A DNA stretch of 64,000 bases, taken from Bacteriovoracia bacterium. GTDB taxonomy: Bacteria; Bdellovibrionota; UBA1018; JBFWNL01. The stretch covers positions 465,927-529,926 of the forward strand of contig JBFWNL010000002.1 in assembly GCA_050251055.1 (NCBI GenBank), in the 5' to 3' direction. Below the pieces are notes generated by a model. The model worked only from the letters and a program-made list of their open reading frames with translations, did not search any database and had not been told where the DNA came from. Made by a program: the position numbers and the translations under genes. Below, in pieces: positions 14,426 through 25,821 of the stretch (position 1 is its first letter; every line of letters starts with the position of its first letter).

Positions 14426-15910
<1,485 letters not shown>

Positions 15911-15955
15911 TCGTTTCTCCTTCTTTCTCTAGCTAACTGACTCTCTTTTCTAAAC

Positions 15956-17245
15956 CTAAACCGTTTCCCTAAAATCCACGGGCAGCCGGACGCGAAACTC
16001 CGCCCCCTTGCCCAACTCGCTCTCGACCACGATCGTGCCCTGGATCTTGTTCAAGATTCCGTAACTGAGGCTCAGGCCCAATCCCATCCCCTTGCCCACT
16101 TCCTTCGTGGAGAAGAACGGATTAAAGGCCTTGGACTTGGTCATTTCGCTCATGCCCACGCCGTCGTCGCGGAACGCGACTTCTACGAATTTTCCCACCC
16201 GGCGCGTCTTGATCTCAAGCTTGCCGCGGCCCCGCTTAGTGGATTCGATGGCGTCGCGCGCATTAGTGGCGAGGTTGATAAAGATCTGCTCGAGCTGGAC
16301 CGGGTTGGCGTAGATTTCCGGCACATTGGCGTCGAAATCCTTCACGACTTCGATCCCGCGCGAAGCGAACTGTCGGTTCATGAGCTTCAACGTTTCTTCG
16401 ATCGCCGTATGGACGTGGGTCATCTCGAGGCCTTCCACGGACTTGCGCGTAAACGAGCGAAGGTACTGAATGATCTTGGCCATCTTATCCACGGCGGCGA
16501 TGATTTCCTTGAGCGAAACCTCGACCATCGGGGTCTCAGGCTTACCCTGGATCAAGGGCACGATGAGATCCGTCAGCTCCTGTGCGTAACCGCGCACGCC
16601 CTGCAGGGGCTGATTGAGCTCGTGGGCGATGCCGGCGGCTAACTCCCCGAGCGCGGCCATCTTGCCGGCCTGCACGAGGGTGTCCTGCATCGACTTGAGC
16701 TCCAGGTTGGACTTTTCGAGCTGATAATACGCATTTTTGAGCTCGGCGTGCTTCGTGATGAGCTCGCGCTCAAGACTCTTCTTTTCGGTCACGTCGCGAA
16801 TCAGCGCGAAGAAGAGCGGCTGGCCCGAATTACTGACGTGGCGGACGCTGAGCTCCACCAAGCGTACGTAGCCGTCCTTACGCAAAAGTGCGACGTCCTC
16901 GTAGGTGCCGGGGGTCGCGAAGACCTCGGCCGTGAGCGCACGGGCCCGGCTCGGGATGTGGTGAACTTCGGGGTTAGGAACTAGGATGCTGACGTTCTGG
17001 CCGTCGAGCTCGGCCTCTATGTAGCCCGTCACCTCTTCGAAGGCGCGGTTCAAGTCGTCGATGCGGCCGTCGGGCAAGACGGTGATGATGGCGTCAGAAG
17101 CTTGCTCGAACAGGATCTGGTACTTCGTCGCGACCTCGTCGACGGCGCGCGTGATCGGGATTGCCTGACCGGGCGTGGCCCCACCCGAGGTCCCGGCGAC
17201 CTCTTCGACTACGCGTAATTTCTGTTTTGACTTAGCGGACGGCAC
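15956..17245 (-). CDS. Cytoplasmic PAS sensor histidine kinase (NtrB-like)
   Basis: PAS (ASDAIITV...LNRAFEEVTGY), H-box AGIAHELNQPL, N-box NLATNARDA, DDGVGM, FFSTKEVGKGMGLGLS; no TM segment. Confidence 0.93.
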   Translation of the reverse strand: MPSAKSKQKLRVVEEVAGTSGGATPGQAIPITRAVDEVATKYQILFEQASDAIITVLPDGRIDDLNRAFEEVTGYIEAELDGQNVSILVPNPEVHHIPSRARALTAEVFATPGTYEDVALLRKDGYVRLVELSVRHVSNSGQPLFFALIRDVTEKKSLERELITKHAELKNAYYQLEKSNLELKSMQDTLVQAGKMAALGELAAGIAHELNQPLQGVRGYAQELTDLIVPLIQGKPETPMVEVSLKEIIAAVDKMAKIIQYLRSFTRKSVEGLEMTHVHTAIEETLKLMNRQFASRGIEVVKDFDANVPEIYANPVQLEQIFINLATNARDAIESTKRGRGKLEIKTRRVGKFVEVAFRDDGVGMSEMTKSKAFNPFFSTKEVGKGMGLGLSLSYGILNKIQGTIVVESELGKGAEFRVRLPVDFRETV

Positions 17246-18125
17246 TCAGGAACGCCCCTGCCCTTTCCATGTCTTTCAAAAACTGCTCTTCGATTTTGGG
17301 GATATCGTCGTGCTGAAGGCCCAGCGGCTCGTACATATCCCGCGTCACCACGCCCTTCGACCAATCGCCCGACTTGCCCACCTTGTTCTTCACGCAAAGC
17401 GTGTTGGCGAGACGGACCATCTGGATCACCGGCTTTTCTGAAGCCAGGATCGTCGACATTTCGCTTACATCAATGTGGTGATAGCGAATCGCGCTACGGA
17501 TCACCTGGGGTAGGCCCCACTTCGCCGCGATCACCTCGCCCAAATAGGAATGGCCCGGCAGTTCGTATTCTTTTTCCACTTCAACAAAGGTGCACTCGCG
17601 CTTCACCGTCGCGCCCATGATGGCCATCAAGCGCTTCTTGTCGATCTCATGCAGCACGAGCTTACCGATGTCGTGCAGAAGCCCACAGGTGAAGGCCGTC
17701 TCCGGACGCACGTGGCCCAGGCGTTTGGCCAGAAGCTCGCTACACACGGCGGTGCCCAGCGCATGCTTCCAGAAATCCAGCATGGAAAGCTCCGCGCCCT
17801 CGATCTCTTGGAAGAGGGAGAACACGGACAGGCCTAGGATCAGCTGGGCGATGGTATTAAAACCCAGATAGGCCAGCGCGCGCTGCACGTCCGCGCAGCC
17901 GCCGGGAATGGCGTAATACGAGGAATTCGCCAGGCGGAGGATCTTCGCGGTAAGGACCTGGTCTTTTTTCAATAGCGCGGCGATATCACCGCTGGAAGAC
18001 GTAGGGTCGTTAATCAACTCGTTCACCTTCATGGCTACGATCGGCAACGTCGGGATATCTTGCAGCTTCGCCAAAAGCTCGGTGTACTCGGCATTGCTTT
18101 TCGGGGCGGATGCGGGCAGCGCCAT
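17232..18125 (-). CDS. HDOD domain protein
   Basis: IPTLP, DQVLTAKILRLANSSYY, FWKHA, GLLHDIGK, WGLP...IRYHH; AGGAG RBS. Confidence 0.92.
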   Translation of the reverse strand: MALPASAPKSNAEYTELLAKLQDIPTLPIVAMKVNELINDPTSSSGDIAALLKKDQVLTAKILRLANSSYYAIPGGCADVQRALAYLGFNTIAQLILGLSVFSLFQEIEGAELSMLDFWKHALGTAVCSELLAKRLGHVRPETAFTCGLLHDIGKLVLHEIDKKRLMAIMGATVKRECTFVEVEKEYELPGHSYLGEVIAAKWGLPQVIRSAIRYHHIDVSEMSTILASEKPVIQMVRLANTLCVKNKVGKSGDWSKGVVTRDMYEPLGLQHDDIPKIEEQFLKDMERAGAFLSAVR

Positions 18126-18165
18126 TCAAGTCTCCTGTTTCGCTTCGAGGGAGTGACCTCTCTGC

Positions 18166-18192
18166 TAATCGGACACATGTGTCGGTTTCTGA
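18166..18192 (-). promoter_or_regulatory. Putative sigma28 (FliA) promoter of the HDOD-kinase-regulator operon
   Basis: TCAG-N15-TCCGATTA on the minus strand, against the consensus TAAA-N15-GCCGATAA. Confidence 0.5.
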
Positions 18193-18396
18193 AATGATTT
18201 CGAACTCGCTCCCGATTCACCTAGCGTTCCGCGGGGAGCCCACAAATGACGTTACTGACCCAGTATAACGCGACACATCAATACCTGACAAATTTATTTT
18301 AATAAACTAAATAAGTTTATGTATCTAAAATAAATAACCCGAAATAACCTATCTTTCTTGTCACCAAATCCTGTCCAGGTTATGACGCAATGCGAT

Positions 18397-21300
18397 ATGG
18401 ATTTCTCTGGGTTCTCTTTCCTCCAATTTGTGGTCGGAATCTGCCTTTCTTTGGCTTCCATAGCCCCCACGTGGGCAGCCGAGAACCCTAATCCGTCGGC
18501 CTCCTTCACCTCCCCTTTAGCCATGGGCGTTGGCCATGCCTGTGTGATCACCGAAGCCGGCCTAAAGTGCTGGGGCCCGAATAACGCCTTTGGCCAGCAA
18601 AACGTGCCCCCGAATTTAGGCACGCCCTTCGCCGTCGCCGCCGGCGACTATCACACCTGTACAATCGTGCACGACCTCGCCTACTGCTGGGGCAAGAACG
18701 ACAATGGCCAACGCGACGTCCCTGACGACTTGCCAGCGCCGGTGATGGAAATCGCGGCCGGCTACCAACACACCTGCGCGATCGCCGCCAACCAGGTTCA
18801 CTGCTGGGCGAAGGAATACAAGAACGGCCAGGCCTCCCCCGAGCATAAGTTCGCGGATGAGTACCAAAGCGGGGGCTTTAAGAATCCCCGGGGATTAGTG
18901 GCCGGCGAAGATCACACGTGCGTAATTACCGATACCGGTGTGCGGTGCTGGGGCCTCGATAGCGCGGGCCAGGCTTCGCCTCCGAAGGACCTCCCCCCGG
19001 CGCTCATGCTCGCGGCCGGCGCCCAACATACTTGCGCGCTCCTTGCCGAAACCAAGGCAATTCGGTGTTGGGGGAAAGTGATCGGCGGCCCGCTGGAGCC
19101 CGAAGCCGGCCTCGTCAATCCACGCGCGATTTTCGCCGGCAAACAACACACCTGCGCGCAAACCGACGATGGACTGCGGTGCTGGGGCGCCGATATCCCT
19201 GGCGTCCTGAGCGTACCGCCGCAATTTCCCAAGCATATCTACGGGGCCTCCGGCGGCTGGAAAAACACCTGCGTGGCCCTACGCGCGAACGTTCACTGCT
19301 GGGGCAAGGATAAAGATGCTTTCAACCGCGCCTATCCCGGCGGAATCCCGCTCGCCGACCTGGCGCCTTACGCCAGCTTGGGCGCGGCTCGTAACTCGGA
19401 GAAAAACTCCACCGAAAGCGTGTTCGCCGAAGAGATCACCCTGAAAAACCCACGCTACCCGGGCACCGATAAATTCTTCCTGCACCCAAGCCAATTCAAC
19501 AATCCCGAACGCCCCCTGACGGCCAACGGGATCTGCAAAGTCCTGGGATACGAAAAAGCCACGTCCGCCGGCGCGAAGTCCTCCTCCTTTTATGGCAAGG
19601 CCTATTCCGTCGACGACAACGGCGAACTCGTCGCCTATCACAGCAACTCGCTCACGGTCAGCTACATCACCTGCCAGAATCTGCTTCGCAAAAATCCGGT
19701 GGGCAAGCTCGCCCGCATAGAAAATCCGAAGTATCCCGGCCAAGACCTGCCCTTTACCGCCTTAGGCGGATCGAATCCCGCCACGGCCGAAAACGGCGTA
19801 TGCCGCCTCCTGGGTTTCGCACGCGCCCTGAAGTTCAGCTCCCAACCCGATACGTCCGCCAACCTCCTCGGCGCCGTGATAAGTGAAACCGGTGAGCTAG
19901 TGGGAGTGCGCAATCAAAACGCCATCAAGGAACTGGTTTGTATCGACCCGTCCCCCGCGGCGCCTCCCGAAGAAATTTTCAGCCTTAAGGACCCCAAAGT
20001 ACCTGGAACCCAGCTTCCGTTCCGAAGTGGAATCTCGGGCCCGCAAGAACATGGAGTTTGCAAAGCCTTGGGCTACGAAAGCGCGGTCATCGGTAGCGCC
20101 AGCGGTTCGGGAAACGCAGGCCAAGGCGTGACTCCCGACGAACAGGGAAAACTCGTGGAGTTAACCAACAACGTCTATCCGATCTCCCAAATCATCTGCA
20201 AAAAACGCCTCGAGAACCTCCGGCTTCCGGCGGTAACCCAAGTGGACAATCCGCTCCACCCTGGAGTGAAGCTGCCCTTTTTATTGACCGGACAGGCGTG
20301 GGACGAATCGGCGATCTGCAGGGCGATGGGTTTCGAGTACGGCGTCCGACGCTCGGCGACTTCGTCAGGCCCGGCGGCGGCTTATTCCGTTTACCTCGAC
20401 CAAGAGGCGCGAGTGAGCCACTTGGGCGTGAACGCGAACCCCGTCGGCAAGGTCCTTTGCGTGAACGCGCGCCCGGGCGGGGAGAGCCAGGAAAACGGCG
20501 AATGGGTAAACGACCCGGTCTACCCGGGTACGTCGTACGCCTTTGGCATGCAGGACAAAAACAACATGGGCCAACCATCGGAGAAGGGCACCTGCCGTCT
20601 TCTCGGTTATGAACGCGCGGCGCGTGGATCGGGAGGTCCGAACGCCAACGGCCTCGGCCCGGCCTTATTCGTGGACGAGGAAGGGAAAATCACCCAAGGC
20701 GGATCGGCCAGCTACCGGCTCGGTAAGATTTTTTGCCTGAATCCTTCGACGCCAACGCCGCCCGAAGCGGTCGCCGAGTTAAAGGACCCGGTCCACCCCG
20801 GCTTCAACCTCCCCTTCGCGAACAGCCCCTACGGCCAGCAAGACCTCCCGTCGGGAATTTGCAAATCGCTCGGATACGAGCGCGGCGTGAATTTTTCCGC
20901 GGTCGCCAACGGAAAACCCGCGCAGGCAATTCTGGTCGACAACTCTGGACAGCTGGCCTCCGTGGTCACCAACCAAAACCTGGTCTCCCAAGTGATCTGC
21001 CTGAATCGTTTGACCGAATTTAAGATGCAAAACGGACGCTACATCAATGTGCCAACTTACCCGGGAACTACCTACGCTTTCGGGTATTCCAATATCTCGG
21101 GGGGCGGTCCATTTCCGAGCGACGGCATCTGCCGCCTGCTGGGTTACTCCAAATCGGCCGCGCACCTCACTCAATCGGGTCCAAGCACCCCAAGCCCGGT
21201 GGTTTATGTAAATCCCGAAGGCAAGCTCACGCAAGCAAGCCCTGCCTCCACAAGAATCGAAAATGTCTTTTGCCTGGATAAAACCGAAGCCCTCGCCCCC

Positions 21301-22053
21301 GAATCCGTCACCGAGCTAAAGGATCCGGTCCATCCCGGATTTAATCTACCGTTCTACTATAACTACTATCAGGCGGACTTGGCCGACGGGGTCTGCGCCG
21401 CCATGGGCTTCGAGCGTGGCCTTAAGGGCTCCACCGCCGGAGCGGGGAAGTCGGCGGATTCGGTCCAGGTCGACGCCAAAGGAAGCCTTACCGATTTCGG
21501 CACCAACCAGGCGACGGTGTCGCAGGTGGCTTGCTTGAACCCAGTCGCCAAGCCGGTGGTGCAACGCGGACAGTTCTTGGTCAACCCCACGCACCCGAAC
21601 TCGGGCCTGCTGATTACGAACGACACCCCGTCCATGCACGGTATCTGCCGAATCAACGGCTTCGCGCGGGCCCTAGCCCAAGGCCAAGGCGTGAGGGCAG
21701 GGGGAGTGGCGGCCACTCTAACGCTCGATGCGGAAGGTAAAATCACCGCCGCCCCGGCTTCCGCCTACACGCTGGCCAAGGTTTTCTGCCTCGAACCAGG
21801 AAACTATGGGCCCACGGAAGAATCGACGTTGATCCAAAACCCCCAGCACCCGGTGGCTAAGCTTCCCTTCTCCGCCACCAGCTCCGAAGATGGCGTGTGC
21901 AAAGCCCTGGGCCACGACCGCGCCGCGAAGGGGAGTCTGCGGAACGGCAACTCCGTCGACACCGTACAGGTCGACGCCGATGGCAAGGAAACCACGCGCA
22001 CCCTGGGCTACAGCGTCGGCTCCTTGGTTTGCATTAAAAATACCAGCAAGTAG
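18397..22053 (+). CDS. Secreted RCC1-repeat protein with ten C-terminal two-cysteine repeats (putative adhesin)
   Basis: Signal peptide ending TWA; RCC1/BLIP-II blades (AG..HTC...V.CWG) then ten repeats. Start uncertain (18358/18382/18397); TTGTCA-17-TATGAC favours 18397. Confidence 0.85.
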   Translation: MDFSGFSFLQFVVGICLSLASIAPTWAAENPNPSASFTSPLAMGVGHACVITEAGLKCWGPNNAFGQQNVPPNLGTPFAVAAGDYHTCTIVHDLAYCWGKNDNGQRDVPDDLPAPVMEIAAGYQHTCAIAANQVHCWAKEYKNGQASPEHKFADEYQSGGFKNPRGLVAGEDHTCVITDTGVRCWGLDSAGQASPPKDLPPALMLAAGAQHTCALLAETKAIRCWGKVIGGPLEPEAGLVNPRAIFAGKQHTCAQTDDGLRCWGADIPGVLSVPPQFPKHIYGASGGWKNTCVALRANVHCWGKDKDAFNRAYPGGIPLADLAPYASLGAARNSEKNSTESVFAEEITLKNPRYPGTDKFFLHPSQFNNPERPLTANGICKVLGYEKATSAGAKSSSFYGKAYSVDDNGELVAYHSNSLTVSYITCQNLLRKNPVGKLARIENPKYPGQDLPFTALGGSNPATAENGVCRLLGFARALKFSSQPDTSANLLGAVISETGELVGVRNQNAIKELVCIDPSPAAPPEEIFSLKDPKVPGTQLPFRSGISGPQEHGVCKALGYESAVIGSASGSGNAGQGVTPDEQGKLVELTNNVYPISQIICKKRLENLRLPAVTQVDNPLHPGVKLPFLLTGQAWDESAICRAMGFEYGVRRSATSSGPAAAYSVYLDQEARVSHLGVNANPVGKVLCVNARPGGESQENGEWVNDPVYPGTSYAFGMQDKNNMGQPSEKGTCRLLGYERAARGSGGPNANGLGPALFVDEEGKITQGGSASYRLGKIFCLNPSTPTPPEAVAELKDPVHPGFNLPFANSPYGQQDLPSGICKSLGYERGVNFSAVANGKPAQAILVDNSGQLASVVTNQNLVSQVICLNRLTEFKMQNGRYINVPTYPGTTYAFGYSNISGGGPFPSDGICRLLGYSKSAAHLTQSGPSTPSPVVYVNPEGKLTQASPASTRIENVFCLDKTEALAPESVTELKDPVHPGFNLPFYYNYYQADLADGVCAAMGFERGLKGSTAGAGKSADSVQVDAKGSLTDFGTNQATVSQVACLNPVAKPVVQRGQFLVNPTHPNSGLLITNDTPSMHGICRINGFARALAQGQGVRAGGVAATLTLDAEGKITAAPASAYTLAKVFCLEPGNYGPTEESTLIQNPQHPVAKLPFSATSSEDGVCKALGHDRAAKGSLRNGNSVDTVQVDADGKETTRTLGYSVGSLVCIKNTSK
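19435..22050 (+). repeat. Ten tandem protein repeats of roughly 75-95 aa
   Basis: Each unit reads [LIV]x[ND]PxxPGxxxPF-variable loop-G[IV]C[KR]xLG[YF]...VDxxGxL...[IV]xC. Confidence 0.9.
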
Positions 22054-24902: not shown

Positions 24903-25772
24903 CTAAAACACTCCAATCGAAAAATCGCGATACTCTTCTTTTGTGATGACCCGGTCGTTGAGGAAGTAATCCCGGTGCTCGCGGATCTTACCTTCGCGGT
25001 CGAGCCCCGTTGTCTGATTCACGCGAACTTCGGCGATAAAGTCAGCAAAGCTGATGCGAGTCAGCTCCGTCATCTGGCCTTCACCGGCTTCGTCGATATC
25101 GATCCCGCGATTGCTGACGCCGATTTCCCCCTCGCCGTTGCCACGGATCTCGACCAACACGCCTACCTTTCCATATTTTTGCGAATTCACGATGCCGGAG
25201 ACGTTCATGCCGAATGTGGCGGACATCGCACTCTCCCCGCTGATCGAATAAACGAAGCTCCCGCTACCGGAAAGCTCGACGCTATCCACATCGTTCAGCT
25301 CGCGATAACCGTCGTCGGTCACCTGGTACAGAGACTGGTAAACCCCGGTGATCGTTCCGTTGGGCGGCAGGGCCTTGCCCTTTTCCGGAAACCCCGTGGA
25401 TCGGAACTCTTGCTGGACGTTCACGGGACACCCCTGGCCGCCGACCTTAAGCACAAAATCGATCCCGTGGGATTGATCCTTGTCCAAAATTTCGCACTTG
25501 GCGTCGTCGATCCGCTTGGCCATGCGGGAAACCCGGTCCAGCTCAATCCCGCCTTCGACTTCCGCAGTCGTAGCCGTTTTCGCCTGCTTGGCTCGGGCCT
25601 GATACTTAGCGTTCCGGACGGCGCTTTCGGTGGACGCCATGGCGTTCGCAAACTCCTTCACCATGGACTTTTGGGTCTCATTCAAGGGCGCGCGCTTCTC
25701 CGCTTCCCCGCAGCCCATAAAGCCGACTAAGGCCAAACCTAAAACGAAAGTCCCGATGCGATTGAATCCCAT
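24903..25772 (-). CDS. Hypothetical lipoprotein, beta-rich C-terminal part
   Basis: AGGGAG RBS before ATG 25772; lipobox-like FMG-C. Confidence 0.7.
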   Translation of the reverse strand: MGFNRIGTFVLGLALVGFMGCGEAEKRAPLNETQKSMVKEFANAMASTESAVRNAKYQARAKQAKTATTAEVEGGIELDRVSRMAKRIDDAKCEILDKDQSHGIDFVLKVGGQGCPVNVQQEFRSTGFPEKGKALPPNGTITGVYQSLYQVTDDGYRELNDVDSVELSGSGSFVYSISGESAMSATFGMNVSGIVNSQKYGKVGVLVEIRGNGEGEIGVSNRGIDIDEAGEGQMTELTRISFADFIAEVRVNQTTGLDREGKIREHRDYFLNDRVITKEEYRDFSIGVF

Positions 25773-25792
25773 AACGATCTCCCTTGGTCGGG

Positions 25793-25821
25793 TTTTTACA
25801 TAACGCAAGCGCTCGCGTCAA
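25793..25821 (-). promoter_or_regulatory. Sigma70-type promoter
   Basis: TTGACG-17-TAAAAA upstream of the lipoprotein gene. Confidence 0.5.

Follow-up and report, generated by a model that had tools for sequence, protein, structure and literature searches.

In a 64,000-nucleotide window of contig JBFWNL010000002.1 from a Bacteriovoracia bacterium (assembly GCA_050251055.1), we found that the gene at 18382..22053 (+) encodes a protein in which a predicted export signal and a seven-bladed propeller are followed by ten tandem copies of a small domain with two cysteines, predicted to adopt a reduced form of the SRCR (scavenger receptor cysteine-rich) fold. The domain recurs in other bacterial proteins, and one of its loops, the segment between a Pro-Phe motif and the first cysteine (loop A), is not hypervariable across this family but is hypervariable in the protein described here.

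Exactly ten repeats follow the propeller, spaced 84–92 aa apart and each with two cysteines 44–47 residues apart. They agree with the ten two-cysteine units and conserved scaffold motifs listed in the initial annotation, and the two prolines, the two cysteines, and the glycine of the helix do not vary among them. Pairwise identity among the repeats was 17–54%, and scaffold identity among the ten copies was only ~42%. All lie on the plus strand: repeat 1 (19432..19683; loop A 19480–19527, 16 aa), repeat 2 (19708..19950; loop A 19756–19794, 13 aa), repeat 3 (19975..20208; loop A 20023–20052, 10 aa), repeat 4 (20233..20469; loop A 20281–20310, 10 aa), repeat 5 (20497..20745; loop A 20545–20586, 14 aa), repeat 6 (20770..21009; loop A 20818–20853, 12 aa), repeat 7 (21034..21282; loop A 21082–21123, 14 aa), repeat 8 (21307..21543; loop A 21355–21387, 11 aa with four Tyr), repeat 9 (21568..21798; loop A 21616–21639, 8 aa), and repeat 10 (21823..22041; loop A 21871–21891, 7 aa), the most family-typical copy. 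A quick tree of 70 domains, which left 41 of 67 branches open and does not settle one origin for the ten copies, placed repeats 5, 7, and 9 in one group (Shimodaira–Hasegawa-like approximate likelihood ratio support 94) and repeats 6 and 8 with repeat 4 in another (90 and 81). Repeats 6 and 8 are 54% identical, and the pair 7+8 is 46% identical to the pair 5+6. The duplication unit of the array is likely to be a two-domain cassette (repeats 5+6, 7+8, and 9+10), because two-domain proteins dominate the family proteins listed and the model of a repeat pair is confident.

For both structural models, of repeat 8 alone and of repeats 7 and 8 folded as a pair, two structure-comparison programs ranked SRCR domains first; SRCR occupied the top ranks among 48,161 chains, and non-SRCR rows aligned only 37–52 residues. 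The single-repeat prediction, proposed as a check in the initial annotation, had a predicted local distance difference test score (pLDDT) of 96. The predicted topology (strand, strand, one helix, curved sheet) resembles that of SRCR domains (Pfam PF00530/PF15494), with 70–76 residues aligned; such domains occur in Mac-2BP, MARCO, SCARA1/5, CD6, CD163, and DMBT1/SALSA and also in hepsin, enteropeptidase, TMPRSS2/13, and complement factor I. One cysteine lies in the helix and one in the last strand, at the places of SRCR C3 and C8; we take the pair to correspond to the C3–C8 disulfide from the alignments and from known SRCR motifs. Both kinds of domain form tandem arrays, extracellular in SRCR proteins and predicted to be so here.

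The repeats nevertheless lack several features by which SRCR domains are recognized. SRCR domains have six or eight conserved cysteines (C1–C4, C2–C7, C3–C8, and C5–C6) compared to two in each repeat, and the superfamily is defined by a domain of ~100–110 aa (PMC3100851), compared to a core of ~79–85 aa here. PF00530 and PF15494 gave no match to the window protein; among relatives, 5 of 147 matched below the curated cut-off (best 25.3 vs 26.1 bits), and among single domains 0 of 49 matched. A search of 301 genomes of the phylum with the Pfam SRCR models returned 0 matches, but its control also gave none. Deeper profiles run against PDB sequences found no SRCR match, and their T-cell receptor matches (E 0.14–0.27) were judged spurious. 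Foldseek against viral models found nothing (best E 5.2). A Pfam scan of 144 proteins gave single stray matches to YecR and YdgH; PF13992 (YecR) was found in 0 of 101 genomes of the order and, as a control, in E. coli. A SCOP-based study lists the SRCR-like fold as specific to Holozoa (PMC9541633), and a malaria SRCR protein named in a reference list indicates that the fold is known beyond animals.

Loop A probably falls on the SRCR segment that carries cation- and ligand-site residues. SRCR8 of SALSA has an acidic dual cation site (D1019, D1020, D1058, D1059, N1081, and E1086; PMC7043408). With positions mapped through alignment ranges, no core column of the bacterial family exceeds ~40% Asp/Glu: these residues make up 6–16% at the start of loop A and 3% six residues before the last cysteine. 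The D1058-like position alone is often Asp or Asn (35% and 32%, respectively) and is Asp in eight of the ten copies here.

A profile built from 49 domains matched 546 representatives at E ≤ 0.001 among 1.84 billion, and 290 proteins from unrelated sources at E ≤ 1e-10, far beyond chance. We analyzed the best 150 of the 546 matches together with this protein, a selection that favours multi-repeat proteins. Two domains were present in 113 of these 151 proteins, three in 28, four in 8, and five in 1; only the window protein had ten. An N-terminal hydrophobic core was found in 129 of the 150 relatives. Across 355 family domains both cysteines are invariant, a proline, three glycines, and a Ser six residues before the first cysteine are conserved, and 333 domains have exactly two cysteines. 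Of 400 other genomes searched within the phylum, 39 contain the domain family, and they span at least 14 taxonomic families. Where a relative has a named source, the label is Bdellovibrionales, Bacteriovoracaceae, or Deltaproteobacteria bacterium, and on this basis we take the phylum to be Bdellovibrionota. The domain had initially been called unfamiliar, and indeed no Pfam or NCBIfam model scored above cut-off for it in the window protein, its relatives, or the 49 single domains. Matches in the ESM Atlas were confined to unnamed clusters below 0.9, leads only, with Myxococcota and Pseudomonadota the commonest phyla; a narrower alignment used as a search pattern over named genomes found one locus. 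Among 23 family loci with short flanks, no neighbouring genes were shared beyond close relatives. We found no account of the family in the literature covered, a coverage that leaves out most subscription papers, and the main text of PMC11656739 does not mention it, although its supplements might list it as hypothetical; PMC4448552 and bioRxiv 2023.11.21.568195 contributed background alone.

Several relatives have features of their own. Many carry a conserved N-terminal Asn-x-Asp-Gly-Ser hairpin extension (alignment columns 22–26; Asp/Glu 90%), which the window repeats do not have, and its presence or absence marks two subfamilies. A five-domain gene is intact in genome G180 (locus L020), split over two frames in G183 (contig C309, L021:1360–2977), and in several pieces in G203 (L035), by frameshift or assembly error. 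Residues 1–184 of relative P0005 and L036:1414–2274 (−) share an N-terminal domain that starts Gly-rich and contains a His-Glu motif; Pfam does not match it in P0005. Gly-rich segments also open P0054, P0093, and P0117, which may share the domain. Unannotated N-terminal regions of ~280–310 aa, helical-looking in P0074, are fused to two repeats in P0074, P0086, and P0112, and a large one is likewise fused to two repeats at L007:5–950. P0101 has a weak Lcl_C match (residues 57–174, E 0.004) ahead of two repeats, and P0028 has a prealbumin-like SpaA_4 match above cut-off (residues 32–113).

Within the window protein, loop A ranges from 7 to 16 aa with a mean identity of 11%, compared to mean identities of 21% and 16% and length variation of only 1–2 aa for the two other loops. 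The initial annotation was thus right that this loop varies in length and sequence within the protein, and all six loops it quoted are in the sequence. Loop A is at least 10 aa long in 8 of 10 domains here, compared to 40 of 345 in the family and 25 of 60 among the nearest domains, and its mean identity is 0.20 vs 0.44 expected from scaffold identity. Among the 36 proteins that have at least three domains its divergence ranks 2nd, but among all 151 only 19th; within the same 36, loop C ranks 3rd and loop B 14th. None of the 35 other larger proteins, and 6 of 150 overall, match its length spread. Family-wide, by comparison, 206 of 345 other domains have a loop A of 7 aa, and 244 of 326 have a Ser six residues before the cysteine; when repeats of one protein are compared, loop A surpasses the other loops in conservation in seven of eight identity bins. 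Ser, Gly, Pro, and Asn abound in the loops here, and aromatic residues are scarce outside repeats 7 and 8. Confidence in the pair model is lowest at loop A of repeat 7 (block mean 71), as would fit a surface loop.

The reading frame is intact and open from 18358 (TTG), 18382, or 18397 (both ATG) to a stop at 22053, encoding 1223 aa from 18382, as in the public gene call, or 1218 aa from 18397. Both the signal peptide and the RCC1/BLIP-II blades reported initially were recovered. A predicted Sec signal peptide (18397..18477, +; about residues 1–27 of the 1218-aa form, with the cleavage site judged by eye) is the sole hydrophobic stretch by hydropathy, with no later anchor. The propeller (18508..19341, +) has seven tandem RCC1-type blades of the form His/Asn-x-Cys-x8/10-Cys-Trp at a spacing of ~39 aa; Pfam RCC1_2 matched six stretches (E 1e-24, 86 bits vs a cut-off of 22), and the top PDB sequence match of the protein was BLIP-II (E 7e-18). 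Seven ~39-aa blades and, as predicted, export are shared with BLIP-II, bacterial RCC1-like propellers, and the crinkly repeats of plant ACR4 (E 1.6e-12), but here every blade has a cysteine pair and the propeller is fused to a repeat array. The fusion appears, from sequence comparison, to be a singleton among the proteins examined, because no RCC1 match was found in 147 scanned relatives of the repeat family and no repeat in the 119 nearest long propeller relatives.

The gene stands alone, with an HD-domain gene and an mpl-like gene adjoining it on the opposite strand. Its G+C content at third codon positions is 0.72, compared to 0.71–0.81 in five neighbours, and thus gives no sign of recent import. 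An AT-rich intergenic stretch (18125–18382) is common to this gene and the divergently oriented HD-domain gene; the latter comes first in a minus-strand run (14426–18125) that also encodes a PAS histidine kinase and a sigma-54 response regulator. A 301-aa open reading frame at 24903–25808 (−) has a lipoprotein-like signal and no NCBIfam match. Elsewhere in the genome (assembly completeness 93.5%), a distant single-domain paralogue with a signal-like N terminus lies at C2:16071–16661 (+; E 4e-4 with a 355-domain profile). Two DNA runs of one study match the gene without differences and are possibly the source of this DNA, making them uninformative on strain variation; no RNA run was among the sequencing runs listed.

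We consider the chances about even that the protein binds surfaces or macromolecules outside the cytoplasm, multivalently and independently of cations. The signal peptide and paired cysteines suggest Sec export and periplasmic disulfide formation, and type II secretion could possibly deliver the protein to the surface or into the medium, because the genome has a GspD secretin above cut-off. The array would have grown by duplication of the cassette, with neighbouring domains predicted to be packed in a fixed orientation. Loop A, probably together with loop C, is likely to make up the face that binds, because both loops sit at positions equivalent to the ligand face of SRCR. Because loops A and C have diverged more here than in relatives, the ligands of the copies would differ or be graded, copy number would supply avidity, and the propeller would be an added protein-binding head. 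Given the lineage, a prey or biofilm surface would be the most plausible putative target. The prey-recognition proteins of Bdellovibrio include MAT fibres (PMC10769870) and the MIDAS adhesin Bd0875 (PMC11003981); the window protein shares with them the phylum and a proposed repertoire of diversified binding modules, but we found no sequence or fold link to them, and the protein neither forms a trimeric fibre nor shows an anchor.

More tentatively, and with considerable doubt, the family could be a long-diverged bacterial sister of SRCR, possibly minimal and ancestral: a one-disulfide, cation-free binding module of Bdellovibrionota with an exchangeable specificity loop, of which the ten-copy protein would be the counterpart to the salivary agglutinin DMBT1, a multi-specific prey-surface sensor or agglutinin. 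The SRCR resemblance noted initially was upheld by first rank in two programs and for both models, but the structural match scores were low. The proposed "constant scaffold plus CDR-like loop" (CDR, complementarity-determining region) does not hold generally: the scaffold is itself divergent, and across the family the loop mostly measures 7 aa and is more strongly conserved than its two counterparts. The repeat might instead be an independent small alpha/beta disulfide fold, possibly still a binder, whose helix motif converged on that of SRCR. We consider this rather unlikely, because the SRCR match spans the domain end to end, competing folds among the 48,161 chains align over shorter stretches, one relative aligns to Pfam SRCR positions 33–98, and comparison with one YecR sequence by hhalign gave a probability of only 0.7% over 21 columns.

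It is unlikely that the repeats are a rigid, protease-resistant spacer carrying the propeller as the binder, with loop A varying for want of constraint. In bacteria, RCC1-type propellers occur in fusion with many stalk or surface domains, the ten copies have diverged throughout, several on long branches, and the loop composition and low model confidence in repeat 7 would fit; yet 123 of 151 family proteins have no further stretch >60 aa, and so no other domain to space, none of the 119 propeller relatives carries the repeat, and loop A is conserved in relatives and identical across four copies in P0004. The BLIP-II match, together with the adjacent genes for an mpl-like ligase and a beta-lactamase-fold hydrolase, could point to a periplasmic protein that inhibits or partners beta-lactamase/penicillin-binding enzymes, for instance to protect the cell itself during attack on the prey wall. 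This is improbable: both genes are on the other strand, the hydrolase has no signal peptide by eye, the BLIP-II similarity is at the level of the repeat, related cysteine-containing propellers are widespread in unrelated architectures, and the ten repeats are left unexplained. Most improbable of all is an actively diversifying, antibody-like repertoire with loop A changing between strains. Loop A is the most variable segment within the protein, but it is conserved in relatives, the gene contains no near-identical DNA copies, and a scan of gene and genome, which did not include a search for reverse transcriptase, found no diversification template or silent cassettes and only the one distant paralogue. 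The loop differences are old divergence among duplicated domains, not shown to be ongoing diversification.

The SRCR fold is regarded as an innate-immunity module of eukaryotes, mainly of animals. If the family is a sister of SRCR, its specificity loop would be the loop that holds calcium in animals, and each domain of the ten-copy protein would display a loop of its own. The presence of a stripped-down SRCR in hundreds of unannotated bacterial proteins would bear on the origin of the fold and on its minimal scaffold, and would offer a new class of candidate binding modules for a predatory phylum whose prey recognition is understood only in part. Because the domain is small, closed by a disulfide, modelled with high confidence, and able to accept loops of 7–16 residues, its structure and binding are directly testable.
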